Source: a virus
Taxonomy: Duplodnaviria > Heunggongvirae > Uroviricota > Caudoviricetes
Strand: one strand, 5' to 3'
IMG/VR virus record: IMGVR_UViG_3300049919_000418
Coordinates: 1 to 22,927 of that record
DNA length: 22,927 nt
Position numbers and translations under genes: made by a program
Notes under the pieces: generated by a model
Seen by the model: only the letters and a program-made list of their open reading frames with translations
Database searches by the model: none
Told to the model about the DNA's origin: nothing
In this document: piece by piece, positions 4,617-22,927 of the stretch
Position numbering within the stretch: the stretch's first letter is position 1
How the letters are laid out: each line of letters begins with the position of its first letter

Positions 4617-5561
4617 ATGGATTTTACATGCAAAATATGCGGCCTAGGGTTCAATTCCTATCGGAGCCTACACAATCATTTGGCCAAGGTTGAGAATACG
4701 GCTCAAAAGGAATATTATGAAAAATACTTCCCGAAGTTTGACCTTTTCAACGGAAACCCGATTCCCTTTTCAAGGGTTGAAGATTATTCCACTCGACTTT
4801 TCATAGATAAGCGGTCTGAGTTCGCCTATCTTAGGCGCAATGGGCTACAGGCGGTTTCTGGAGACGTTTTAATGAAGCAGTTGGCCGACTGCTCCGCAAA
4901 ATCAAGAGGAAGGCTTCCAACATACTGTGAGTGGAGGTCTTCAAAAAACCTACGCTACGATTTCATGGACAAGGAGGGTTTTTTCCTTGAGTTTGTTGAG
5001 CGGGCGCGGGCGAATGGTATTAATTCTAATTTTGATTATTCCGCTCGTTGGTTGCAGTTTGAATCCAAAGAATGCGAAATTCTTGTTGATACCCGGGAGC
5101 AACAACCCCTTTTTGATTGTGAAAAAACTACAATTAATGTTGGGGACTACACACTAAGTAAAGAAAACTACAACGGAGTTCATGTTGACCGTAAATCCAA
5201 AGCGGACTTTATCGGAACCTTTACAAAGGGGTTGGATAGGTTTAGAAAAGAGTGCGAAAAAGCACGGGCTATGGATATAACTATTGTAGTCTTAATAGAG
5301 GAAACATATCAAAAATGCTTCACTTATCTTCCTTTAAAATTTACAAAACAAAAAGTTACAGGTGAGAGTGCGTTTCATGGGTTGCGTAAAATTTCCCGCG
5401 AATTCCCGGAGGTTCAATTTTTGTTTGTTGATGGGAGGGAAGAGGCAAAAGAATATATTAAAATGCTTTTAAATAATAAAAACATAATCGAATCGGTAGA
5501 TCTTCAGTTCATGTATGAGCTTGGGGAGCTTGATATTAAAATTGTGGAGGACTCATTATAA
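4617..5561 (+). CDS. Zinc-finger + ERCC4 (XPF/Mus81/Hef-like) structure-specific nuclease
   Basis: N-terminal CKIC-x12-H; C-terminal ILVDTREQQP, GDY, VDRKSKAD, RFRKE, matching the ERCC4 DxRE / GD-x(n)-ERK-x3-D motifs. Confidence 0.85.
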   Translation: MDFTCKICGLGFNSYRSLHNHLAKVENTAQKEYYEKYFPKFDLFNGNPIPFSRVEDYSTRLFIDKRSEFAYLRRNGLQAVSGDVLMKQLADCSAKSRGRLPTYCEWRSSKNLRYDFMDKEGFFLEFVERARANGINSNFDYSARWLQFESKECEILVDTREQQPLFDCEKTTINVGDYTLSKENYNGVHVDRKSKADFIGTFTKGLDRFRKECEKARAMDITIVVLIEETYQKCFTYLPLKFTKQKVTGESAFHGLRKISREFPEVQFLFVDGREEAKEYIKMLLNNKNIIESVDLQFMYELGELDIKIVEDSL

Positions 5562-5562
5562 T

Positions 5563-8271
5563 ATGGCTTGGCAGGAGGGTTACCATACTTTAAAAGATCC
5601 GTTCCTTACGGATACCAATAAAAAATTAGGATTAATTGAGGGGGAAATCAGTTCAAGAGACGCTCAGGTTTCTTTTGCAAAATTTTGCTGTGCAAATCCA
5701 GCTTTTGCAGCCAACCTTTTGATGGGCGTAGATATCTATCCGTTTCAAGATATTATGCTTCGAGCAATGAATAGCCGCGATTATTTTCTCGGTGTCGCAG
5801 GTCGAGGACTCGGGAAAACGACTATCGCGGCGATATTTGTTCCTCTTTATGCTATTTTTAACCCCGGAGTGACAATCGGGATTACCAGCTCAACTTTCCG
5901 TCAAGCAAGATCGATATTTTCTAAAATTGAAAGCATGGCATACTCTGAGGGGGGTAAATATCTTAGGCAGTGCTTGGTTGGCAAACCTAGCCATAGAAGC
6001 GATGCGTGGGAAATGCAAATTGGACAATCCAAGATTGTTGCAATTCCGCTTGGCTGTTTTGGCGCGAATAGTCGTGTTAGATCTGACCGGGGCCTTGTTA
6101 AAATTGAAGATTACGCAAAGGACGAACCCAATAGTTGGGAGAACTCCCCGCTATCTGTGGACACTTTAAAGTCTCGCTCTAGGGCTTCTCACGTTTTGAA
6201 CGCAGGAAAACAAAAGTGTTACGAAGTTATTACTAAAAAAGGCTTTAAGGTAACGGCTGGAGAAAACCATGAATTTTTAGCTTATAATGGGGAAGAATTT
6301 GTTTGGAAAATTTGCTCTCAGCTTAACTTTCAAGATAGAATTCTGCTTAGTAAGCAAAGGTATGAATGCTCGCAGCCTGAATACAATTTAGGGTATGATC
6401 TTGGATATAAATACGGTTCGGAGCAATTTTTCTCTTCAGTTCAAGAGGAGCGTATTTTCAGTTGCACCAAAGAGTTCGGAAAGGGCTTTCTATCTGGCCT
6501 TTTTGAAACAGGGGTAAAGTCTTTTAAGAGGGCGAGCGGCGATCAAGTTTGGACTCTTAAATTGGCTAACGAGGAAATTGCGTTGAACATTCAACAGTAT
6601 TTACTGTGCTTTGGCATCGTTTCTTCAAGAATAAGCAATTCAATTAAATTAAATTATAAAAATATCCGCGTCTTTGGTAAGGAAATTGGGGATGGTAAAA
6701 GCCATTTCTTTGAAAAACATGCCAAAAAAATCAAAGTTAGAGAAAGTGTAATTGCCGCCGCACCAAAAAGGAGGGTCAAGCATGGGTTCGGAAAAGACTT
6801 TTTTATTGATTGCGTTAGAAATGTTACTCCACTGGGTGAAAGGCAGACCTATGATCTGCGCGTTCCTGTAGAAAATAACTATATCGTAAATGGATTTTGT
6901 AGTCATAATTCAGGCGATAAAATTCGGGGATATCGTTTTAATTTATTGGTTATTGACGAACTTTTGCTTTTATCCGAAAAGGTCATCAATGAAGTTCTAC
7001 TTCCCTTCATGGCTATTCAGATTGATCCGCGTGAACGCCAAAAGGTTCGCGAGGCGGAAATCGAACTTATTGAGGCTGGGCTTATGAAGCCGGAAGACAG
7101 GACGATATTTCCGAATAATAAACTTATTGGGCTTACCTCCGCAAGTTATGAATTTGAATATCTTTATGAAATGTATAAAGACTATTCTGAGAAAATCAAC
7201 GATCAATCGGCCAAGAACGTTTCTCACGCTATCATGCAAATGAGTTGTGAAATGGCTCCGGTCGGCCTTTATGACGAAAGCAACGTTGAAAACGCCCGCA
7301 AAAGTTACTCCCGCGCTCAGTTCGACCGAGAATATATGGCCAAATTTACTGGCGACAGTTCGGGGTTCTACTCTGCAAAGAAGCTGTATGAAATAAGCCT
7401 TAAAAAGGGTGAAAGCCCAACAGTTAAAATTAAAGGGGACGGCGCGAAGAATTATTTGCTAGCTATTGACCCGAACTATGACGCGTCCGAAACGTCTGAC
7501 GATTTCGCAATGACAATTTTTGAGGTAGATGAGGACAACCAACATGGATATATGGTTCATGGTTATGCTGTCGCGTCTTGCTCCCTCTCTGAGCGAATGG
7601 ACTACGTTCGATATATTTTTGATAATTTTAACATTGTTTATATGATTGTCGATAAAGCGGGTGGAGCTAAATTTGTGAAGGATATTAATGATCTTGGGGT
7701 TTTACCGTTTGCTTTGGACTTTTTTGACGCTGAATTTGAAGTATTCGATGAGGAAGAAATGTTTAAGGCTCGCCAATCTTATAACAATGGGGGCAAAGTA
7801 AAGCGTATTGTTCATTCTCAGTATTTCAGCGCTCAGTGGATTAGAACGGCTAACGAAAGCCTTTCTGGCGCAATTGACGGCAAAAGAATTTGGTTTGCCG
7901 CGCCTACGGAAGCTGAGGGAGTTAATTTTGATGACATCCCTATCCAAAAACTCAAGTTCAACGAAACTGAGATTTACGGAAACAAAAAGGAAGATCTTGA
8001 AACCAAGCGAATCGACTTTATTGATAATCAGAGTTTGGTTATTAGTAAAACAAAAAATCAGTGCGCCCTTATTGAGGCTACAACAGGGGCAACCGGAACC
8101 CAAAGGTTTGACCTTCCGTCCAACCTTCAGAAACAGACGGGTCCAACAAAAACACGTAAAGACTCTTATTCCGCACTTGTTTTGGCTAACTGGGGATTAA
8201 TTTGTTACTTTGCCCTGCTTAAGACTCCTGAGAAGAAAAAAAACATGTTTAAGGCTAGATTTTTAGCTTAA
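5563..8271 (+). CDS. terL: Terminase large subunit (intein-containing; 902 aa precursor, about 617 aa spliced)
   Basis: Walker A AGRGLGKT, IRGYRFNLLVIDE Walker B, LTSA coupling motif, RNase H-like LAIDP...DDFA...RKDSYSA. GGAGG at 5546-5550 precedes ATG 5563. Confidence 0.95.
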   Translation: MAWQEGYHTLKDPFLTDTNKKLGLIEGEISSRDAQVSFAKFCCANPAFAANLLMGVDIYPFQDIMLRAMNSRDYFLGVAGRGLGKTTIAAIFVPLYAIFNPGVTIGITSSTFRQARSIFSKIESMAYSEGGKYLRQCLVGKPSHRSDAWEMQIGQSKIVAIPLGCFGANSRVRSDRGLVKIEDYAKDEPNSWENSPLSVDTLKSRSRASHVLNAGKQKCYEVITKKGFKVTAGENHEFLAYNGEEFVWKICSQLNFQDRILLSKQRYECSQPEYNLGYDLGYKYGSEQFFSSVQEERIFSCTKEFGKGFLSGLFETGVKSFKRASGDQVWTLKLANEEIALNIQQYLLCFGIVSSRISNSIKLNYKNIRVFGKEIGDGKSHFFEKHAKKIKVRESVIAAAPKRRVKHGFGKDFFIDCVRNVTPLGERQTYDLRVPVENNYIVNGFCSHNSGDKIRGYRFNLLVIDELLLLSEKVINEVLLPFMAIQIDPRERQKVREAEIELIEAGLMKPEDRTIFPNNKLIGLTSASYEFEYLYEMYKDYSEKINDQSAKNVSHAIMQMSCEMAPVGLYDESNVENARKSYSRAQFDREYMAKFTGDSSGFYSAKKLYEISLKKGESPTVKIKGDGAKNYLLAIDPNYDASETSDDFAMTIFEVDEDNQHGYMVHGYAVASCSLSERMDYVRYIFDNFNIVYMIVDKAGGAKFVKDINDLGVLPFALDFFDAEFEVFDEEEMFKARQSYNNGGKVKRIVHSQYFSAQWIRTANESLSGAIDGKRIWFAAPTEAEGVNFDDIPIQKLKFNETEIYGNKKEDLETKRIDFIDNQSLVISKTKNQCALIEATTGATGTQRFDLPSNLQKQTGPTKTRKDSYSALVLANWGLICYFALLKTPEKKKNMFKARFLA
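6055..6909 (+). mobile_element. Intein (285 aa) with degenerate LAGLIDADG domain
   Basis: Begins CFGANSRV after AIPLG; block B VTAGENHEF; ends TYDLRV...NYIVNGFCSHN followed by +1 Ser. Removing it gives AIPLG-SGDKIRG. Confidence 0.95.
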
Positions 8272-8300: not shown

Positions 8301-10130
8301 ATGGAAATAATTAAGGAGGAAAATTTAATTAAGAAGAGCTTTAATTCGCCTAAAATGGTTGCCGACGCTTCCTTGTTCGGGATGGCGTCCTCAAGAGCGA
8401 AAAACAAGGCCGCTGGAGCAGCGGCGTCTTCTGATATTAGCGGACTGCTTTGCAATATAAGCAGCGGTGTAAGCCCCTTCGCTTATCAAAATGGCGATGT
8501 TAATGTTCGTGACGCGATTCTTCTTTGCCAAAAAGCGTATTGGAATGTTTCTATTTTTAAGTTATCTATTGATATTATGTCGGAGTTCTCCAACTCTCCC
8601 ATTCACTTTGTTGGCAAAAATAAGGCTTCTGTTCGATTCTTCGAGGATTGGTATGAGAAAATTGGGGGGTGGAATCTTGGGGACCAGTTCTTCCGCGAAC
8701 TTTTCAGAAGCAGTAATGTTATCCTTTATAAGGTTGAAGGCGAACTAAAAGATCTTAAAAATAAGCCATTGGCGAAAGTTCCTATTCGCTACATTGTCTT
8801 GAACCCTGCCGATATTGCTTGCGAATCATCTGCCAATTTCCTTCACGGATCATACAAAAAGATTTTAAATGATTACGAAGTTCAAGTTTTAAAAAATTCA
8901 ACCGATCCAAAAAACTTGGCTCTCAAAAAGAGCTTACCAAAGCAAGTTCAAGATGATATTTCAAAAGGCGTATCAACTGCCATACCGCTTAAACCGGACG
9001 AAATCATCACCGCTTTTTTTAAAAAACAAGACTACGAGCCAATGGCAGTGCCGATGTATTTTTCAGTTCTTTTTGATATTAATTTAAAATTAGAATTCAA
9101 AAAGGCGGAACAATTAATTTCCCGCGCTTGTGAGTATATGATTCTCCTTATCACGGTTGGAGATAAGGACAACGGTGTTGATGATGAGCTTGTTGAATCT
9201 ATTGAAACTCTTTTCAAGACAGAAAGTGTCGGACGGGTGCTAGTTTCCGACTATACGACTAAGATGGATTTCATTATTCCGGATCTTGCCAAAATTCTTG
9301 GCCCAACAAAGTATGAAGCGGTTAACGCGGATATTTCCAACGGACTAATGAACATTTTCTTCGGGGAACAAAAATATGCTGACTCCATGCTTAAAATGAA
9401 GGTTTTCCTTGAGAGGCTTAAAGAGTCGCGCAAAGTTTATTTAAATTCATTTTTGATTCCTGAAATGCAGAGGATCTCGAAAACACTAGGCTTCCGTGAG
9501 TGCCCAACCCCTGTTTTCGAGGACGTTGATCTTAAAGACGAGGTTGAATACATGAAACTTTATAACCGTTTGGCGGAACTTGGCTTCCTAACGAACGAAG
9601 AAACCATTACGGCCTATAAAACCCATGTTCTGCCAGAACAATATGATAGCATTGTTTCTCAGGAGAACTTTAAAACCAATAAGAAGAAGGGCCTTTACGA
9701 ACCTGTTGGAAAAAAAGACGCGCTAGCTAAACCCGCTGGAAGACCAACGGGAACGCCCCAAAAGCAAAAGAAAAAGAAGGTTACCCCTGTTGGAAGCGGA
9801 AGCGACAATACAAAAACCTACTCGGTCACCAAGCTAAAAGATGTTATTTATAAGGCGGACGAATTAATTGACTCCGTTATGGATTCCTATAAAACAAAAT
9901 TCAATATTTCCCGCGCAAGCAAAAAACATAAAGATATCGCCCGCAATACCGCGTTTGCAATTATTCAAAATGAAAAAATGGAGGATTGGACGAGATCGAT
10001 TGAAGCGTATATTGAAAACCCAATGAAGCAAGGCCCGATTGGCGAACTTGTCGTTGAGGAGGCTAGCAGCCATAGCCTTGATTTTCGCTCTGCAAGCTTA
10101 TTGTTTCACACGCTCGATGAATTGGTGTAA
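8301..10130 (+). CDS. Portal protein
   Basis: 609 aa, between terL and the prohead protease, largely helical, with a GRP-containing low-complexity segment (AGRPTGTP) as often seen near portal C-termini. Confidence 0.85.
   Translation: MEIIKEENLIKKSFNSPKMVADASLFGMASSRAKNKAAGAAASSDISGLLCNISSGVSPFAYQNGDVNVRDAILLCQKAYWNVSIFKLSIDIMSEFSNSPIHFVGKNKASVRFFEDWYEKIGGWNLGDQFFRELFRSSNVILYKVEGELKDLKNKPLAKVPIRYIVLNPADIACESSANFLHGSYKKILNDYEVQVLKNSTDPKNLALKKSLPKQVQDDISKGVSTAIPLKPDEIITAFFKKQDYEPMAVPMYFSVLFDINLKLEFKKAEQLISRACEYMILLITVGDKDNGVDDELVESIETLFKTESVGRVLVSDYTTKMDFIIPDLAKILGPTKYEAVNADISNGLMNIFFGEQKYADSMLKMKVFLERLKESRKVYLNSFLIPEMQRISKTLGFRECPTPVFEDVDLKDEVEYMKLYNRLAELGFLTNEETITAYKTHVLPEQYDSIVSQENFKTNKKKGLYEPVGKKDALAKPAGRPTGTPQKQKKKKVTPVGSGSDNTKTYSVTKLKDVIYKADELIDSVMDSYKTKFNISRASKKHKDIARNTAFAIIQNEKMEDWTRSIEAYIENPMKQGPIGELVVEEASSHSLDFRSASLLFHTLDELV
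10125..10130 (+). promoter_or_regulatory. GTGTAA putative late promoter element overlapping the portal stop codon
   Basis: 11 nt before ATG 10142. Confidence 0.6.
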
Positions 10131-10141
10131 TAATTAATTAT

Positions 10142-11653
10142 ATGAAGTTTAAATATAAAACTAAATTTGAATCAACCGCCAAATATAATTTTGGAAAATG
10201 GAAGGAAGCCAAGGCAAGCACAGAAGTTTTTGCGCCATTGGACGATTTGAGGTCTTTGCTTCCTGACGACGAAAAAATTAGCGACAACCCAGACCTTCTT
10301 TACACCAGCTTCAACGCTGCCGTTGCGAATTTAATTAACGCTAACGACCATGGCATGACAACTGAAACCGCTCTTGCTGTTTCCAAATATTTTGTTGATC
10401 GCCACATGAATATCGAGCACTGCCGTTATGATGTTATTGGGCACATTATTAGTCAAGGGTTCAGCTCTTTTGGCGACAATAAAATGCTCAAGGAGTCCGA
10501 ATTGATTGGCTCGCAAGAACCCTTTAATATTTGCCTAGGCTCGGTTGTGTATAAAATTGTTCGCGAGTATATGGCCGAAGTTATCGAAGAGTCTGGCGAT
10601 AAGGATAGCCCGTATTACGGATGCGTTAGCACCTCATGGGAAATCGGATTTAACGAATTTGATATTGCTTTAGGTAGTAAACGATTGGCTGACGCGGAAA
10701 TTATTTCGGACCCCAAACGAGTCGCTGAACTCACTCAATATTTAAAAATGGAGGGGGGGACAGGATTTATGCCAAATGGAACGCCTGTTTATTGCATTAT
10801 TAAGGGAGACGCCCGCCCGCTTGGCTGCGCGTTTACCGGCAATCCGGCTGCGCCAGTAAAGGGCGTATTTGTTCCGACTTCAACCGAGAACGAGGAAGAC
10901 CCTAAAAATCCCGATAGAGAACATTGCTGTTCAACAGACCCCAAAGTTCCCGAAATTTTACCCGAAAAGGAAGAAAAGGCCTCTTTGGAGGGTGAAAATG
11001 ATAATAATTTATTAAATAACATTGAAATTAATTCACAAACTACTAAAAATACTGTAAATAAGAATATGAAATTGACATCCACAGAAGATATCACTCCTGA
11101 GTTCATGAAGCAAGCGGACGCGTCCGTTGTTAGAGACTTCATTTCGGTTGAGCTTGAAAAAACAAGCAAGACCTTCTCCGAGCAAGTCGCAGCAGCAGAA
11201 AAAGACAAGGCGGCTGTTGAAGCAACCCTTGAAGCAACTAATAAAACTCTTTCCGAAGTTCAAACCAAGCTTGATGAACTCAACAAGCAGGTTGAAGCAA
11301 AAGTTAAGCAAGAAGCATTCAACTCCCGCATGGACGAAGTTTCTTCTACGTATGAATTGAATGACGCACAACGCGCAGCAGTTGCTTCCCAAATCAAAGA
11401 ACTTGACTCCGATGGTTATACCGCTTGGAAGTCCAACGCAGAACTCTTCATGGCGAAAAAAGTTGTTGCTTCCGCAAAGGAAGAAACAGTTGTTGTTGAA
11501 GACGAAAAAGAAAAAGAAGCTGCCGCAGCACTTAAAAATGCAACTGCTTCTGAAACCCCAGCACTTACAAACAGCACTTCCCCGGAATCGGGCAGCGAAA
11601 TCTCCAAGCTTATTGGAAGCCTCGCAGGTGCGATCTCAATCAACAAACAATAA
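10142..11653 (+). CDS. Prohead maturation protease-scaffold fusion
   Basis: N-terminal NANDH, MNIEH..DVIGHI and STSWE segments (candidate His/Ser catalytic residues), an acidic linker, then an Ala/Glu/Lys-rich coiled coil. Lies between portal and capsid genes. Confidence 0.75.
   Translation: MKFKYKTKFESTAKYNFGKWKEAKASTEVFAPLDDLRSLLPDDEKISDNPDLLYTSFNAAVANLINANDHGMTTETALAVSKYFVDRHMNIEHCRYDVIGHIISQGFSSFGDNKMLKESELIGSQEPFNICLGSVVYKIVREYMAEVIEESGDKDSPYYGCVSTSWEIGFNEFDIALGSKRLADAEIISDPKRVAELTQYLKMEGGTGFMPNGTPVYCIIKGDARPLGCAFTGNPAAPVKGVFVPTSTENEEDPKNPDREHCCSTDPKVPEILPEKEEKASLEGENDNNLLNNIEINSQTTKNTVNKNMKLTSTEDITPEFMKQADASVVRDFISVELEKTSKTFSEQVAAAEKDKAAVEATLEATNKTLSEVQTKLDELNKQVEAKVKQEAFNSRMDEVSSTYELNDAQRAAVASQIKELDSDGYTAWKSNAELFMAKKVVASAKEETVVVEDEKEKEAAAALKNATASETPALTNSTSPESGSEISKLIGSLAGAISINKQ
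11066..11653 (+). CDS. Probable nested in-frame scaffold protein (195 aa)
   Basis: In-frame ATG (MKLTSTEDIT) preceded by an intergenic-looking AT-rich tract and CTGTAA-N8-ATG; coiled-coil product. Confidence 0.55.
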   Translation: MKLTSTEDITPEFMKQADASVVRDFISVELEKTSKTFSEQVAAAEKDKAAVEATLEATNKTLSEVQTKLDELNKQVEAKVKQEAFNSRMDEVSSTYELNDAQRAAVASQIKELDSDGYTAWKSNAELFMAKKVVASAKEETVVVEDEKEKEAAAALKNATASETPALTNSTSPESGSEISKLIGSLAGAISINKQ

Positions 11654-11674
11654 TCTTTTAATAAATAAAAAACT

Positions 11675-12259
11675 ATGGATATTACATCAAAGCCAAATTT
11701 GAAGCCTTACCGCAACTACAACGAGCACGACGTTATCGATCTTTTCGCTCACGTTGACGGTGTTGCTAACAAAGGTTCTCTTGTCGGAATCACCACTGCA
11801 AATGGAAATACTAACGTTTGGAATGGTGCTGGCACCCCTCCGACCCCTCATGTTGCAGTTTATGGGCAAATCGCAGGTGTTCCAACCCGTGCATATGCAG
11901 CTCGCCACCACGTTACTTGGAAGGTAAAGAACACCTCCAGCGGTGAAGTTCCACTTGGAATTCTTCTTTTCGACGTTCGTGAAAACAACCCTTTCGGTGA
12001 AAAGCTTATTTTCCGCCCTCGTCACGAACGATACGAAAACGACATTATCGTTTCCGGTGAAGCGGCACTTGTTGTTACCCGTGGTATTTTCTCTGTCAAT
12101 GGTTTTGTCGGAACTCCCGGCCCAAACTCTGGTGCGGTTCCCTCCACGACTTCCGGTCAAGTGTTGGTTACAAATAACGTAACTGGTGTCGCAAACGTTG
12201 GTAAGTTCCTTACCTCCGCAGACCCAGACGGTTATGCACTTTTCAAACTTGAACTGTAA
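11675..12259 (+). CDS. Capsid decoration/stabilising protein (putative)
   Basis: 194 aa, Gly/Val/Thr-rich beta-type sequence immediately upstream of the capsid gene, the position of lambda gpD-like genes. Confidence 0.6.
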   Translation: MDITSKPNLKPYRNYNEHDVIDLFAHVDGVANKGSLVGITTANGNTNVWNGAGTPPTPHVAVYGQIAGVPTRAYAARHHVTWKVKNTSSGEVPLGILLFDVRENNPFGEKLIFRPRHERYENDIIVSGEAALVVTRGIFSVNGFVGTPGPNSGAVPSTTSGQVLVTNNVTGVANVGKFLTSADPDGYALFKLEL

Positions 12260-12297
12260 TCAATAACCCCCAAACTTCTAAAGAATAACAAATTATT

Positions 12298-13416
12298 ATG
12301 ATTAAATTAAATATCAGTAAAGACTCAGAGAAAGTCAAGGATTTGACTAAGCTCATGGTTCTTGCCTCAAAGGATGGGGAATCCGGTCGCCAAGCACGCG
12401 AAGCTATTGCAGCTTTCGCAGGTCCGGTGATTACTCAAGTTCTCCAACAATTCGCAACCCACCGCGCTTTCTATACTCAGTATAGCTACAACTTCGGTGA
12501 AGTTCCAACCATTCCACTTGACAACTTCACAGGAAACTCTGAAGGACTCATTAGCATCTGGAGTTGCTCAACTCCGGGCGGTCTTGCCACTAACCACATC
12601 TCCGGTGGTGATGAGTTTAGAATGACCACATTCCCATACGACACGGCACTTAGTATGCTTAAGCGTAACGCGGAACAAGGTCGTTTCGAACTTCTTGTCT
12701 CTGGTCTTGAGCGTATGGCGCAAGAGCTCATGATTAAGGAAGCGTATCAAGCTTGGAGCACAATGCTTCTTTCCCTTGGTGCTGCAAGAACTAACGGCTC
12801 CCCGCACCTTATCTCCGCAACCACACCTAACGTTTTCCAACTTGACGACGTGAACCGCTTGAAAACGAAAGTTTCTCGCCTTCGCAACTCTTGGTTGGGC
12901 GGAACTCCGACCCAAAAGGTTGGACAAGGATTCACTCACTTAGTTATTTCCCCGGAAATCGCAGAGCAAATCCGTGGTATGGCTTACAATCCACAAAACG
13001 TTCGTGCTGGTTCATTCACCACAAGTGGTGCAACAGCGATTCCTCTTCCGGATCAAATCCGCATGAGCATCTTCAACGAATCCGGTCTGCTTAGCATTCC
13101 GGGTGTTGCCAACTTCGTTCAATTGAATGAGTTTGGTGTTGGACAAGCTTACAACGCGCTGTTTGACAATGGTTATACAGCAGGTGGCGGCGAACCAGCC
13201 TTCGCAAGCGCAACTGACGAGCTTATCCTTGCGGTTGACCTTAGCCTTGACGCAGGTGTTCAAATGACCGCAAGTGATTCGGAACGCAGCTCGCAACTTA
13301 AGGTTGAAGAGGACGATCAGTTCACGAAAAGAAGCGGTCGATTCGGCTACTTCGCAAGTCTTGAGACGGGGTACTCGTGGCTTGATTCAAAAACTTTGTC
13401 AGGAATTATCGTATAA
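12298..13416 (+). CDS. Major capsid protein (HK97-fold expected)
   Basis: 372 aa, synteny, strongly biased codons (TTC, AAC, GGT, GTT), THLVISPE segment typical of the HK97 A-domain strand, followed by a strong terminator. Confidence 0.85.
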   Translation: MIKLNISKDSEKVKDLTKLMVLASKDGESGRQAREAIAAFAGPVITQVLQQFATHRAFYTQYSYNFGEVPTIPLDNFTGNSEGLISIWSCSTPGGLATNHISGGDEFRMTTFPYDTALSMLKRNAEQGRFELLVSGLERMAQELMIKEAYQAWSTMLLSLGAARTNGSPHLISATTPNVFQLDDVNRLKTKVSRLRNSWLGGTPTQKVGQGFTHLVISPEIAEQIRGMAYNPQNVRAGSFTTSGATAIPLPDQIRMSIFNESGLLSIPGVANFVQLNEFGVGQAYNALFDNGYTAGGGEPAFASATDELILAVDLSLDAGVQMTASDSERSSQLKVEEDDQFTKRSGRFGYFASLETGYSWLDSKTLSGIIV

Positions 13417-13438
13417 CTCGATAGTAACTAACGAGTTA
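13414..13438 (+). other. Hairpin overlapping the capsid stop codon
   Basis: TAACTCG-A-TAG-TAA-CTA-A-CGAGTTA: 7+3 bp stem with one A-A mismatch. Confidence 0.6.
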
Positions 13439-13446
13439 CAACAATT

Positions 13447-13475
13447 GAAAGGGTTAGAAATAACCCTTTCTTTTT
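13447..13475 (+). terminator. Rho-independent terminator
   Basis: Perfect 10-bp stem GAAAGGGTTA/TAACCCTTTC, GAAA tetraloop, T5 tail. Confidence 0.85.
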
Positions 13476-13509
13476 AACTATTAAGGAAACAAGATACGGT
13501 CTATTTGAT

Positions 13510-14397
13510 ATGAAATATAATTGGTCAACAGAGGAAGAAAATATAATTAAAAACAAATATAAAACTTTGCGGCGCGGAGTTAAAGAGTTGTTGCCGTTGC
13601 TACCGGGAAGAAGCGAACGGGCGATTATCTTGAAAGCTAAAAAAATGGGAATTCGGAGAGATACGTGTGGAATGCGATTTTTATACGATTTTGACTTTTG
13701 GAAAATTTACAATCCAGTTAATTGTTATTGGGCAGGAATGGTTGCGGCAGATGGCTGCATTTATCAAAATAAAAATTTAGATAGCTATACGTTTTCTTTT
13801 GGGCTACAGGAAAAATACCAAATTGAGAAATTTGTAGAAGATACAAAAAGCGAGTATGCCATTCATAATAAACCCGTTCGTGAGAATGAAGCGCCAATGT
13901 ATTATGCTCGATATACAGCTTCAAAGGAGTGGCAGAGCGATTTAAAAAATAACTTCAATATCGCGCCGCGAAAAAGTTGGAATATGCCCGCCCCAACACA
14001 AATTCCAAAAGATTTGTTTAAATACTTTTTAATTGGTTTCATAGATGGCGACGGACACATTGCAATTAATAAACGAAAAGGCTCGGGTTCCTCTTGTTTT
14101 GTTTTTAAAATAGCTTTGGCTACAAGAGAAGTATTGGATTACATTAAAGAATGGGCTGACGTAGAATACCCTTCACCAACGAAAAGAAGCGTTAGGAATT
14201 ATTGCTGTGAAGACAAAATTTATTATCACTTTACAATAGGTGGGCTTGCCGCATGCAAAATGTATCTTAGTCTTCGGCAACTTATCCCTGAGAAGCATCT
14301 TTCCCGTAAATGGGATGTGCCAGAATACGTCGATTACTGCGAAAAACGTGTCAAGGCTTCACAAGACAAGCAAAAAAGTGTAACGCATATTATATGA
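13510..14397 (+). CDS. Free-standing two-motif LAGLIDADG homing endonuclease with N-terminal Myb/HTH-like domain
   Basis: YWAGMVAADGCI and FLIGFIDGDGHI motifs with catalytic Asp intact; N-terminal WSTEEENII...LPGRSERAIILKAKKMGI; more AT-rich than the capsid gene. Confidence 0.9.
   Translation: MKYNWSTEEENIIKNKYKTLRRGVKELLPLLPGRSERAIILKAKKMGIRRDTCGMRFLYDFDFWKIYNPVNCYWAGMVAADGCIYQNKNLDSYTFSFGLQEKYQIEKFVEDTKSEYAIHNKPVRENEAPMYYARYTASKEWQSDLKNNFNIAPRKSWNMPAPTQIPKDLFKYFLIGFIDGDGHIAINKRKGSGSSCFVFKIALATREVLDYIKEWADVEYPSPTKRSVRNYCCEDKIYYHFTIGGLAACKMYLSLRQLIPEKHLSRKWDVPEYVDYCEKRVKASQDKQKSVTHII
14378..14383 (+). promoter_or_regulatory. GTGTAA putative late promoter element
   Basis: 10 nt before ATG 14394, inside the last codons of the endonuclease gene. 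Confidence 0.65.
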
Positions 14398-17163: not shown

Positions 17164-18288
17164 ATGCCTAGACTTAGAACAATTTATAACAACGAAGCAC
17201 TTCTTGTTGGACCTTCTCCAGCTACGGGCGCACACACCACTTCAAACATTAAGAAGATTCACCGTGTTCAATCGGTTGGCAATTCTATTGAATATGCGCT
17301 TGAAAATATCAATGAACTTGGTAAAATGGCGGCTATTGACAGAATCAACTCCGATGGTTCCGACAGCAAACTTGACTTTTCTTACTATGTTACCGACTTC
17401 GAAAATGAAGCCAACCTTGGATTTACAATCTCCTCAACTACATCCGCTATCGGATCTATTGCGGATAGAACTCAGGACGACAAAAACTACTTCCGCGCCG
17501 TTGCTGGAGAAGGACTTGACGCTAACGGACTAGGCCCTGCGTCTGTCGCCGTTTTGGCCGTTGGTAATGGATTTATTGCTAGTTACGGTATCGAAGCTGC
17601 CGTTGGCAGTTTCCCTATGGCGACTCTAAGTGTTCAGGGACTAAACACCGCTTCTTATAGCACGGGAAGCGCCCAAAGGATTCCTGCGGTTGATCCTAGC
17701 ACAGCCCAAAAGGCTGTTGGCAACTTCACTCTTCCAACCATTCCGTTTTCTAGCGGACTTAAGCCAAGCGTTATTAGACCCGGCGATGTTAAGGTAACAT
17801 TCAGCAACGCAGGAGCAGGTCTTTTCCAAACGCTTGATACCAACCTAATTGTTCAAAAGGCTAGTTTCAACTTTGACTTTAACCTTGAAGCAATTAACAA
17901 ACTTGGCGCTCGCATGTCCATTTCCCGTGAAGTTCAATATCCAGTTGATATCGACATCAGCATTGAGGCCCTCATGGGTGACCTTACTGCGGCAACCGGC
18001 ATGGTTGACTTTATGTGTTCCGAACCTACAACGGACATCACATTTGACTTCTACAAGTCTGCTTGTGGAGTTGACGGTCCAACCGCAGTTGCTTCTGATA
18101 TCTTCGCTAAGTTCATCATCAAAAATGCTAAACTTACCTCTCAGGATCTTTCCGGATCTATTGGGCCAAGCAGCACGGTCACTATGAAATTCTTGTCCCA
18201 AATCGGCGCATCCAATGATACGGCAAACGGACTTTTCTTCAGTGGCGTTACTGGTTATTCGGGTGCCTCTACGCTGAAGTCTCTGTAA
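17164..18288 (+). CDS. Major tail tube protein
   Basis: 374 aa, Ser/Thr/Gly-rich beta sequence with RVQS and INELG segments; capsid-like codon bias; own terminator; upstream of chaperones and tape measure. Confidence 0.75.
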   Translation: MPRLRTIYNNEALLVGPSPATGAHTTSNIKKIHRVQSVGNSIEYALENINELGKMAAIDRINSDGSDSKLDFSYYVTDFENEANLGFTISSTTSAIGSIADRTQDDKNYFRAVAGEGLDANGLGPASVAVLAVGNGFIASYGIEAAVGSFPMATLSVQGLNTASYSTGSAQRIPAVDPSTAQKAVGNFTLPTIPFSSGLKPSVIRPGDVKVTFSNAGAGLFQTLDTNLIVQKASFNFDFNLEAINKLGARMSISREVQYPVDIDISIEALMGDLTAATGMVDFMCSEPTTDITFDFYKSACGVDGPTAVASDIFAKFIIKNAKLTSQDLSGSIGPSSTVTMKFLSQIGASNDTANGLFFSGVTGYSGASTLKSL

Positions 18289-18710: not shown

Positions 18711-19394
18711 ATGCGAATTTTATATAAATTTACCCACAGATTAAAAGACGGAAAAGAAGCTATTTTGGCGCTTAGGAAACCAACTCGCTTGGAGCTTGAT
18801 GACAGTGACATGATGTTCTCAAAGTTTCAATCTGAATGCATTCAACGCGGCATTCTTACGAAGGAAATGCTTGTCAAAACAATTAAAAACTTTGGCGGCG
18901 TTTTGTCAAATAAGGAGGAAAAAGAATACTCCAAGATCTTTGGTAGCTTTGTTGAGGCGAAGCAAAAGCTTGATAAGGCTAAAAACAAAAAAGAGCGCGA
19001 AACCCTTCAAAAGGAAATCGACCTTTACTATAGCTCTTTACGGGATATCGAAATGGAACATGAACACCTTTTTGATCGCACTGCGGACGTTATCGCTCGG
19101 AATAAGACCATTATGCACCTTGCGCTGTTGATTGGAATGATTGACAAAAAAACCGACGAAAACGACGATCCCGTTTGGGAGCCGCTTTTCAAGGGTGATG
19201 AGTTCGAAGAGAGGTATGCTGATTTTTCCAACAAAGAGGAGGAAAATCCTGACGATACCAATAATATGCTTTCCCGCATAAGTCTTTTTACTACTTTTTG
19301 GTATTATGGCGACAAATCCATCAACGAGGAAAATTTCAAAGAATACGACGAGTTGACACGGGCGGATTTTTATGATCTTATCGCGCCTGAATGA
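18711..19394 (+). CDS. Putative tail assembly chaperone, paralog A
   Basis: Between tail tube and tape measure; LRKPT motif; AAGGA-type RBS. Confidence 0.6.
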   Translation: MRILYKFTHRLKDGKEAILALRKPTRLELDDSDMMFSKFQSECIQRGILTKEMLVKTIKNFGGVLSNKEEKEYSKIFGSFVEAKQKLDKAKNKKERETLQKEIDLYYSSLRDIEMEHEHLFDRTADVIARNKTIMHLALLIGMIDKKTDENDDPVWEPLFKGDEFEERYADFSNKEEENPDDTNNMLSRISLFTTFWYYGDKSINEENFKEYDELTRADFYDLIAPE

Positions 19395-20299
19395 ACCTAG
19401 GCTTGCTTAACGAGGTTAGGCTTGGCCGAACAAAATCTTCGAAGGGTTGGATAAGGCATCCGACCATAACAGACGAATCGTTTCTTCAGGAGCTTGATGA
19501 AAAGTTTCTCAAACTAGCTGTCAAAAGAAAAATACCTCTCGAAAGGGAGGCTCTTGCTGCCGCGAACAAAGCGGGAACTTGGACGGACGCGAACCAAAGG
19601 GATTTGGATTCTAGCGAAGCTTATTTAGCCAGACTTCAAGAAAGCTATGAGAAAATTATTGAGGCCCAAAAGAAATCAATTCTTGAAGCCCTTAATGAAG
19701 CGTCCATAAAGGTTAGAAACCTCCGCGACAAAAAAGATAAAGCTATCGGGAAAACGGCGGAAGACCGCGCCTCAAAGCTATCTATAGAGCGATATATTTT
19801 AAGTTTATTTTATCGTGATGAAAAATTATTAATCAGGTCTTGGGATGACGAGGGGGCTGAAATGTTAGAGCAATCCGCCGTTGACGCCGCCTTTAAAGAA
19901 TTTATGCTTTATCGCGCTAAAATTGGAGACGATAACCTGCGCGAACTGGCATGCTCAACTTTTTGCCAAAATCTTTACGCCGTTTCGGGCAATGGGTTTT
20001 ATTTTTATGGCCGGAGCATAGTGGACCTTACCTGCCTGCAACAAAGGTTTTTGCTTTTGATGGAGAATTATAAAAATATTATTTCAAATATAAGCGGCAA
20101 GGTTTCCAGTAAAACGTTGTCGGATTGGCGCGAACTTGATAAGTGGGCCGCTTCATCCGAAAACGGTCGCGAACAACTTGAAAAGGATTGGGGCTCGCCG
20201 CAGGGAACAGGAGCCCTTTCCAGAGAAAGCATCATGAAAGCCTCTATGCTTGAGAATCCAGAGGCAAGCGCGAAAGCTGTTCAAAAGTTGGTAAATTAA
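19391..20299 (+). CDS. Putative tail assembly chaperone, paralog B with C-terminal extension
   Basis: IRHPT motif; aligns with paralog A over about 135 aa; ATGA overlap; immediately before the tape measure gene. Confidence 0.6.
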   Translation: MNLGLLNEVRLGRTKSSKGWIRHPTITDESFLQELDEKFLKLAVKRKIPLEREALAAANKAGTWTDANQRDLDSSEAYLARLQESYEKIIEAQKKSILEALNEASIKVRNLRDKKDKAIGKTAEDRASKLSIERYILSLFYRDEKLLIRSWDDEGAEMLEQSAVDAAFKEFMLYRAKIGDDNLRELACSTFCQNLYAVSGNGFYFYGRSIVDLTCLQQRFLLLMENYKNIISNISGKVSSKTLSDWRELDKWAASSENGREQLEKDWGSPQGTGALSRESIMKASMLENPEASAKAVQKLVN

Positions 20300-20368: not shown

Positions 20369-22927
20369 ATGTCAGAAACAGTTAAATTTCCATTAGATTT
20401 CGATTCGTCCCCGGCCTACGCCTCGGTTAACCGTTTGGCCAGCTATACCCAAAAGAAACTTGGGTCGATTAATGTTGGCGGCGGCACTGGATTCGCGAAA
20501 GCAAACCGTGAAGCTCGGGCGTTCAGCCAAACCCTTGAATTCGCGAACGACCGTATGGTTGCGTTTGCGGCAACCACATCCATTGTTTATGGAGTTGGCA
20601 AAGCGTTTTTATCCCTTTATCAGAACGCGTTAAAGGCCGAGCAGGCGTTGGCTAACATTCAGGTTAACGTCAAGGTTACCAACCAAGAAATGACCACATT
20701 AACGTCCGACCTTTTCAAGGCCGCGAACGCTACCGGAAATTCCTTTTACGTTGCGGCGGAAGCGGCAGCGGAATTTGGGCGTCAAGGTCTTAAAGTGGCG
20801 GATATTGCAAAAGCTACTTCTTCCGCGCTTGTTTTGACTCAGATTTCGGGCATGGATGTTGCGTCAAGTGTTAAAACTCTAACTGCGGCAATCAACACCT
20901 TCGGTAAAGACGCCATCGGCTACGAAGGTCTTGTCAATAAGATGGCCGCAGCCGACACCAACTTTGCGGTTAGCTCCAAAGACATTGCTGAAGCGATCAG
21001 TCGTGTTGGTTCCACCGCGAAAGACGCGGGCGTTAACCTTGACCAACTTATTGCGGCTGTTACCTCCGTTCAGCAAACAACGGCCCGTGGCGGACCTGCT
21101 ATCGGTAACGCCTTCAAAACCATTTTCACCAAGCTTCAAAGCGATGAAACTGCGGCGGCGCTTGAGAATGTTGGTATCGCGACAAAAGATTCTGAGGGGA
21201 ACTTTTTGAACGCAATTGACGTATTAAAAGATCTTGCACAGGGCTATGACAATCTAACCGATTCCCAACAAGCAAACGTTTCCAAAAAAATTGGTGGCGT
21301 TTACCAAATCAACATCGTTAAAGCCTTAATTGGTGATCTCGCCAAATCTACAAGTGCATACGGTCAAGCGCTTGGCATTGTTGGGAGGGCGCAAAACGAA
21401 GCGTTCATTAAAAGTGAATTTTTGGGCCGTACCTCTCTAAATAAAATTAATGAGGCTAAAAACGGATTCGTTCAGCTTGGCGCGGCAATTGGAAAACTTG
21501 GGGTAAACTCCTCTGTTGGGGATTTGGCATCCCAATTTGCCGATTTAACATCAAGCATTGGTGAAGCTTTAAACAAAGACCCAGAAACGGCAAGCGCTGG
21601 AGAAAAAATCGGACAGTCGGTTGTTAAAGGGGTTATCAACGCAATTAGCGGACCCGGACTAGCACTGCTCGCGGTTGGACTGGCCAAGCTTTCCACCTCT
21701 ATTTTTGGTCGCTTCACCAAAGACATTGGCGGAACCCTTTTGGGCAAAGGCCCCGAAAAAACCGTTTCAAAAATGGGGGGGATTATTGAGGAAAATAAAC
21801 AGCGCATTATTTCCATTCAAAACGAAAGGGTTTACAATGCTTCTTTGCTGCAAGGAAACACTGCTCTTCAACAAAGGCTTGCGCTGGTAGCTAAAATAGC
21901 TTCCTCTTCCATGGCTCAAGCTGCCGCTCCAATCATGGGAACCAACTCTGGAACAAGAATCGTTCCTAGAAAGGCGTTTGCGGGGGGTATGATCCCTGCG
22001 GTTAACCGTGAGGCCCGCGACATCAACAAAGGCGTTGGCGGGGCCGGTATGGGGGCAAAGCCTGCCATTAAGAAGATCCGCATGAGTCAGGGCGGAAGGC
22101 CCGAGAATGTTGTTGTCAATAGCCACGAAGTTATTGTTCGGGATTACCTTGGAACTGGCGCGGACGCCGTATTTAACAAAAACATGATCGCCCAAGCTGG
22201 CGGCATGGACAAGGTCAAAGAACTTGGAAAAATTGAAAAGGTTTCTGGAAGCGTAAACACCTTCGCAAGTGGTTTAAAGCCTAAAATTAATGCTTATAAG
22301 TCTGGCGGCGGAAGAGCATGGACAACAGAAAACGGGTCTTTCTTAAAAGTTTACAACCAAAAAGATAAAATTGATGTTGATTTAATTACAAGCGCCAAAA
22401 AGGGCGACGGGCGATTACTCTTTAATAGACTTCTTGACGTATCGAAGCGAATGAAAAAACCTATTCATTCGCAAACCTTGTTGAGTCAGAGAGCGGACTG
22501 GGGAAAAATGTCGGGCAAGAAAACAAATTTTGATAAATTAAAAGTTCTTTACCCACAATTAGCTTGGCGCGACCAAAAGGGAGTAAAAAATGAAATGATG
22601 TTCGGAGTTAGAGAAAAGGGCGGTCTTGACTCTGCTTGGCATAAGGACACCTCGTTAAGAACTGTTAAAAAGTATGTAAACAAACTTTCCCCTGACGAGT
22701 TCTCAAGAAAAAACTTTAACTTTTTAAATTTAAAAACAAGGAATAACTTTGCAGGCGGATACACTCCAAAGTCCGCTTCTTCCCGCATGCTCTCTGGACG
22801 CAACGGTTTCCAATCCGAATGGATCAAAAGCAAAGCTAAACAAAGCGGCCTACCTCTTTCCAAAAACGGTTTCCCTCAAAACCCGGAAGACGCACTAAAA
22901 ATGGCCGACTCTTTCCGGGGTCTTTAC
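20369..22927 (+). CDS. Tape measure protein, TP901-type (3' partial, 853 codons in window; not in ORF track)
   Basis: Manual translation MSETVKFPLDFD...AAEFGRQG...FAVSSKDIAEAISRVGSTAKDAGV...TARGGPAIGNAFKTIFTKL...LTDSQQANV...; Ala/Gly-rich PhageMin_Tail-like core; no stop codon found up to the window end. Confidence 0.93.
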   Translation, partial: MSETVKFPLDFDSSPAYASVNRLASYTQKKLGSINVGGGTGFAKANREARAFSQTLEFANDRMVAFAATTSIVYGVGKAFLSLYQNALKAEQALANIQVNVKVTNQEMTTLTSDLFKAANATGNSFYVAAEAAAEFGRQGLKVADIAKATSSALVLTQISGMDVASSVKTLTAAINTFGKDAIGYEGLVNKMAAADTNFAVSSKDIAEAISRVGSTAKDAGVNLDQLIAAVTSVQQTTARGGPAIGNAFKTIFTKLQSDETAAALENVGIATKDSEGNFLNAIDVLKDLAQGYDNLTDSQQANVSKKIGGVYQINIVKALIGDLAKSTSAYGQALGIVGRAQNEAFIKSEFLGRTSLNKINEAKNGFVQLGAAIGKLGVNSSVGDLASQFADLTSSIGEALNKDPETASAGEKIGQSVVKGVINAISGPGLALLAVGLAKLSTSIFGRFTKDIGGTLLGKGPEKTVSKMGGIIEENKQRIISIQNERVYNASLLQGNTALQQRLALVAKIASSSMAQAAAPIMGTNSGTRIVPRKAFAGGMIPAVNREARDINKGVGGAGMGAKPAIKKIRMSQGGRPENVVVNSHEVIVRDYLGTGADAVFNKNMIAQAGGMDKVKELGKIEKVSGSVNTFASGLKPKINAYKSGGGRAWTTENGSFLKVYNQKDKIDVDLITSAKKGDGRLLFNRLLDVSKRMKKPIHSQTLLSQRADWGKMSGKKTNFDKLKVLYPQLAWRDQKGVKNEMMFGVREKGGLDSAWHKDTSLRTVKKYVNKLSPDEFSRKNFNFLNLKTRNNFAGGYTPKSASSRMLSGRNGFQSEWIKSKAKQSGLPLSKNGFPQNPEDALKMADSFRGLY

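Follow-up and report, generated by a model that had tools for sequence, protein, structure and literature searches.

The tape measure protein (TMP) of this uncultured freshwater phage carries, after its helical ruler core, an array of modules that are fenced by a recurring junction peptide and are exchanged at this peptide between relatives, and the array probably is swappable injected cargo. The window, the whole analysed stretch of DNA of 22,927 nt, is part of a 67.7-kb contig with a terminase, PhoH and a tail module (Pfam, PHROG). It holds the first 853 of the 2,383 amino acid residues of the TMP (20369..22927, plus strand), and the full gene extends beyond it (G000:C1:42437-35286, minus strand). 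The N-terminal core, residues 74 to 405 (20588..21583, plus strand), was matched by TIGR01760 with 113.9 bits, above the curated cut-off of 28.8, and the core was also matched by PF10145 with 117.5 bits (E 9e-34, cut-off 33.2) and the protein by the TMP families of PHROG. Judged by these matches, it is a member of the TP901-type TMP family. In cultured phages only the helical core was matched, at 24-29% identity among the 25 of 237 matches listed.

The TMP gene lies downstream of the terminase within the tail module, where the adjoining genes were assigned by position only. Two ORFs of 227 and 302 residues (18711..20299, plus strand) occupy the usual position of the tail assembly chaperones, and an ORF of 374 residues (17164..18288, plus strand) that of the major tail tube protein. 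None of the three was matched in Pfam, PHROG or NCBIfam, as was the case for most of the scanned head and tail genes between the window positions 8301 and 19394. The 374-residue ORF has six viral relatives, and their loci also carry a TMP. The large terminase subunit (5515-8271) contains an intein and a LAGLIDADG-like domain, and a free-standing LAGLIDADG endonuclease gene (13510-14397) directly follows a 372-residue ORF in the capsid position. The phage group is poorly sampled, with no relative in GTDB and no close one in culture.

Eleven of the 24 listed freshwater runs contained at least half of the sampled words, three of them possibly being source runs, and the contigs from eight other runs that cover parts of the cassette zone agree with it at almost every letter. 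As the sequence recurs in independent assemblies from freshwater, that of the TMP is not an assembly artefact. The strain in run X7 has a mosaic TMP: its ruler core (L001:13128-14485, about residues 1-437 of the TMP) differs at many positions that are spaced in threes, while in the cassette zone (10245-12531) there are hardly any differences besides one in-frame deletion of 15 nt.

An earlier note on this DNA had described three FA[G/S]GxxP motifs in the TMP. All three were found in the open frame from 20369, with FAGGMIP at residue 537 (21977..21997), FASGLKP at residue 632 (22262..22282) and FAGGYTP at residue 794 (22748..22768, all on the plus strand), and the spacings of 95 and 162 residues were confirmed. 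The rest of the 2,383-residue frame holds a fourth, full copy, FAGGFVPNFARG, at residue 862 and a weaker one, LATGGIP, at residue 1065. The C-terminal 12 residues of the TMP (G000:C1 ~35325-35289) end in AVAAGFTPNLKG, which looks like a further degenerate junction motif. By composition, 0.004 copies of F-A-[GS]-G-x-x-P are expected per whole protein, and at least two copies were observed in none of 20,000 shuffles. As the pattern was picked after the fact, the family of relatives provides the stronger test.

The TMPs of 80 of the 139 IMG/VR core matches and of six loci reached via a neighbouring gene gave 78 distinct frames, including the query. Their commonest repeated 5-mers were GFVPN, FVPNF and VPNFA, and the family consensus A/S-x-G-[FYH]-[VI]-P-N-[FY]-A was present in 234 strict copies. 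A motif profile gave at least one hit in 69 of the 78 frames, with 0 to 13 copies per relative, and two hits in the 557,949 residues of a shuffled control. The other long frames of these loci, 276,530 residues in total, contained no copy, and neither did the rest of the query genome. The codons of the motif vary synonymously (identical 0.54 against 0.47 expected, n = 2,216), and selection therefore acts on the peptide and not on the DNA. The residue before A-x-G is variable (A 221, F 73, K 64, L 59 and R 42 of 591).

In the query, only the copy at residue 862 passed the family profile with a score of 33; the copy at residue 794 scored 3.8 and those at 537 and 632 were below 0. The copies in the window were identified with the family motif because of their position in alignments with the canonical copies of relatives. 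The first one, degenerate and disordered in the model, aligns with the first family motif; the second, also degenerate and with a pLDDT below 50, aligns with the family copy that follows module 1, and the third with RAAGYVPNF of P0014. The conserved core of the motif, G-[FYH]-[VI]-P-N-F, is mostly hidden in these degenerate copies. With FA[G/S]GxxP, the left half of the family motif had been seen.

The DNA alignments between relatives show that the junction peptide marks points of DNA exchange. Inside the motif zone, 61 of 95 non-redundant alignment ends were located within 10 residues of a motif, 57 of them on either side of the alignment, against 11% at random, and 34 were more than 10 residues away from any motif. 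At the protein level the ends were less sharp, with 30% near motifs versus 12%. L059 corresponds to L027 plus a module-2 homologue, spanning motif 848 to 1009, L069 to L065 (98% identical) plus one module, and L064 to L035 minus a P-loop module. In P0031, the closest relative with 45% identity across the N-terminal ~630 residues, an additional HExxH module is placed between modules 1 and 2. The 232 inter-motif segments of 62 TMPs fell into 94 clusters with changing order, and the 426 segments of 117 TMPs into 147 clusters, 96 of which were singletons; TMP length correlates with the number of motifs (r = 0.79). The motifs had been proposed to be cassette junctions between swappable domains, and both the clusters and the DNA alignment ends agree with this, as relatives gain, lose and swap segments at the motifs. 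P0053 and P0054 are TMPs with module 2 and an HExxH domain and no recognisable junction motif, possibly a lineage whose code is a different one or has been lost.

Module 1 (21989..22258, plus strand) is a fixed, folded entry domain of about 90 residues with an invariant Glu587 (22127-22129). It was predicted as a compact domain, both flanking motifs being disordered in the model, and had no match among solved structures. Module 1 had been counted as cargo, which was not supported, since in 56 of 69 IMG/VR relatives it opens the array as a fixed domain. For modules 1 and 2, structure prediction bore out independent folding, and BLASTP agreed that the modules are unlike each other and unlike the core, with no pair below E 0.18. 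The suggested link to lambda gpH held for a C-terminal module (gpH 731-788, E 3e-9) that is kept in 44 of 117 relatives and is absent from the query. For module 1, HHalign gave a probability of 3.5-17% to this lambda-like module, and no profile hit to gpH or pb2 was obtained.

Module 2 (22283..22738, plus strand) is a mobile cassette with a predicted GNAT alpha/beta fold (AlphaFold pLDDT 94.9). The top 50 fold matches were dominated by GNAT-superfamily titles, and AcrVA5 (PDB 6IUF), at 16% identity, was among the tied best, within 1 Z of many GNATs. A module 2 profile had 81 hits, and 49 of the 61 large ones carried a TMP core. Homologues were found in about 50 other TMPs in slots 0-7 and were fenced by the motif on both sides in 43 of 56 cases (12% at random); among 69 unselected relatives, four have the module. 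One family member hits Pfam GNAT (E 4e-6), and the invariant Gly, Pro and Arg are retained at 21-35% identity. The canonical GNAT motif A is R/Q-x-x-G-x-G/A. The query module departs from it with K-K-G-D-G-R, its CoA-binding loop (K-K-G-D-G) being two residues short. The full loop is present in the homologues of P0031 and P0045, and an acidic residue (D or E) is found in the loop of 37 of 43 members. Going by the model, module 2 may be an acetyltransferase, possibly an inactive one because of its short, acidic loop. P0026, P0029, P0030 and P0041 are proteins of 281-460 residues without TMP core or motif, in which a module-2 homologue is followed by Gly/Ala-rich hydrophobic stretches; they had no Pfam hit and may serve other phages as ejection or pilot proteins.

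Module 3 (22769..22927, plus strand) is a small cassette of about 60 residues, which ends 8 residues beyond the window at the full motif copy of residue 862. It had no family match, and its homologues, which 4 of 116 other TMPs contain, vary in position. The query TMP itself thus contains one recognised enzyme fold, with the remaining modules unassigned. As to the hallmark domains named for polyvalent proteins (MPTase, LPD families, DarB/ArdC types), it carries no HExxH motif, and Pfam gave no LPD hit.

For the cargo of the relatives, 127 segments chosen from the 232 were scanned against Pfam. Ten had a hit, three of them at the curated cut-off (the P-loop domain AAA_33 twice and an SprA-related domain). 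Whole-length scans of twelve giant proteins gave GNATs in one and a poly(A) polymerase head in one. In P0021, a motif-bearing protein of 3,779 residues, residues 259-391 are a poly(A) polymerase/CCA-type nucleotidyltransferase head (E 9e-12). HExxH is present in 14 of 117 TMPs, and the Walker A and HExxH motifs of these other cargo modules are intact. Some clusters may, by their motifs, be kinase-like, HAD-like and nuclease-like. Across the family, chains with at least two unrelated effector-type domains occur, in variable architecture. The TMP of L023 has three HExxH cassettes, and a cassette of this TMP (13340-14083), with weak hits to DUF2441 and sigma-70 region 4, is a candidate transcription-hijacking module.

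The array resembles the polyvalent proteins of Iyer et al. 2017 (PMC5512222), where many unrelated effector domains are joined in one virion-associated chain of variable architecture; their domains include GNAT, zincin HExxH peptidase, kinase-like and nuclease-like ones. Like them, the query protein is encoded among virion genes, here as the TMP gene. In its passages on virion carriers these are MuF, portal and head proteins, a role that the tail ruler has in the query family. The main text of PMC5512222, whose online supplements may list such proteins, does not use the word 'tape', and no recurring junction peptide is described in the parts on these proteins. By analogy, the TMP array would act as an injected polyvalent protein that forms part of the tail ruler, and its delivery with the DNA would follow from TMP biology. 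With the TP901-type TMPs (TIGR01760, PF10145) the query family shares the N-terminal ruler core, the gene position and the presence of extra enzyme domains in the TMP. In TMPs that carry cell-wall hydrolases (P1 Sit, TM4, SPbeta YomI), the known additional domains degrade the wall and are fixed, whereas those of the query family look cytoplasm-acting and stand in a variable internal array. Our literature searches found no published description of the junction motif or of the module array.

T5 pb2 is cut after R1127, as given in the cleavage passages of PMC10038345. The site reads FVPR|AEGGMMYP and is similar to KAF-AGGMIP of the query. On the family motif profile the T5 site failed with -6.6, and pb2 was unmatched by the module profiles, so that the link to T5 is a visual likeness. 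In T5 pb2 and lambda gpH, as described, A-x-G-G motifs are found near a small Glu-bearing module as in the family, and the T5 cut lies just before AEGG. They have a single C-terminal cut, whereas the family has up to 13 internal motifs around exchangeable domains. For lambda gpH, passages of PMC12617516 state that the cleavage mechanism is unknown and the site unmapped, and they propose that gpH* spans the envelope.

The cassette zone is preceded by a hydrophobic stretch at residues 421-445 (21629..21703, plus strand; Kyte-Doolittle 1.7 over residues 421-439), a candidate membrane-spanning segment. Among 105 TMPs, such a stretch was found before the first motif in 77, after the array in 52 and inside it in 9. 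A second hydrophobic region of the query (residues 1210-1276) is below the hydropathy threshold. The array sits mid-ruler and is followed by about 1,300 residues of the TMP. Folded domains would not fit a tail lumen that is shared by 3-6 chains, and the cargo must therefore travel unfolded or be stored elsewhere. After ejection the ruler would insert in the inner membrane and, since the array lies just past the hydrophobic segment, leave the modules on the cytoplasmic side, with access to acetyl-CoA and ATP. We infer this delivery because TMPs are ejected, because lambda gpH* is suggested to reach across the envelope and because the hydrophobic stretch precedes the array in most of the TMPs.

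In the host, a protease would cleave either immediately ahead of A-x-G, the side on which T5 pb2 is cut, or at PNF|A. The candidates are module 1 with its invariant Glu587 or a host protease; no protease domain was found in the query TMP or in the four following genes. That the array is a payload which is ejected with the ruler and cut at the junction peptide, freeing enzymes such as the predicted acetyltransferase in the host, is a proposal that we believe about as much as we doubt it. Its extended form seems unlikely to us: module 1 would be a new protease that reads G-F-V-P-N-F-A and releases up to a dozen exchangeable effectors, including an AcrVA5-like acetyltransferase that would disarm host defence ahead of all phage gene expression, and the system would be widespread in uncultured aquatic phages. 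For the exchange of cassettes, the 30-nt coding stretch of the peptide would offer enough microhomology.

AcrVA5 is a phage anti-CRISPR acetyltransferase, and Rac belongs to phiKMV-like phages. Rac is described as a phage GNAT acting on the host RNA polymerase in passages of Iyer et al. 2021 (PMC7824862), in which the TMP is mentioned once, as a DNA conduit. By analogy with both, the target of module 2 may be a host defence or transcription protein. Module 2 differs from AcrVA5 in being about 60 residues longer, in its short CoA loop and in its place inside a structural protein, and Cas targeting is not implied.

Instead of being released, the swappable injected modules could stay attached to the membrane-inserted ruler with the enzymes active there, and the peptide would be a binding or folding signal for a tail chaperone, the tube wall or the register of the 3-6 TMP chains. 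We regard this as possible, if doubtful. It would explain why the strongest conservation is in the hydrophobic G-F-V-P-N-F run and not at a fixed P1, why no protease was found and why hydrophobic stretches lie on the flanks of the array; cleavage inside mature particles, according to passages of PMC12617516, has been demonstrated only for T5 and lambda, once each. Processing is favoured by the T5 cut, which precedes a similar A-x-G, and by the predicted disorder of the motifs beside module 1. Moreover, one motif per domain boundary suits processing better than regularly spaced chaperone sites, because the motif-to-motif spacings in the family range from about 25 to over 500 residues.

Cutting could also take place at tail assembly in the producing cell, where the array would be excised, its late-acting enzymes would work outside the virion and the ruler would be an expression vehicle. 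The T5 and lambda TMPs are described as being cut during morphogenesis, and the tail tube is a poor fit for folded domains. The position of the array in the middle of the ruler speaks against such an excision, which we hold to be quite improbable: the cut piece of T5 and lambda, as described, remains in the particle, and the cargo types match those given for injected polyvalent proteins (PMC5512222). Still less credible is a passive role, in which the peptide would be no more than a joint where recombination is tolerated and the modules, as decayed domains, would tune the tail length, as the correlation of TMP length with motif number, the many singleton clusters and the atypical CoA loop of module 2 might suggest. 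The motif is conserved at the protein level and not at the DNA level, module 2 keeps a confident fold with its invariant residues, and Walker A and HExxH are intact in other cargo, all of which argue against passive inserts.

If the modules are injected cargo as we propose, the TMP would provide a tail-based route of pre-emptive counter-defence beside the known head-based ones. The junction peptide gives a boundary rule for splitting giant unannotated TMPs into domains, and the clustered segments of the 117 proteins are mostly unnamed candidate early effectors. For the old question of lambda gpH cleavage, the repeated peptide predicts a bond and offers natural candidate sites in the hundreds.
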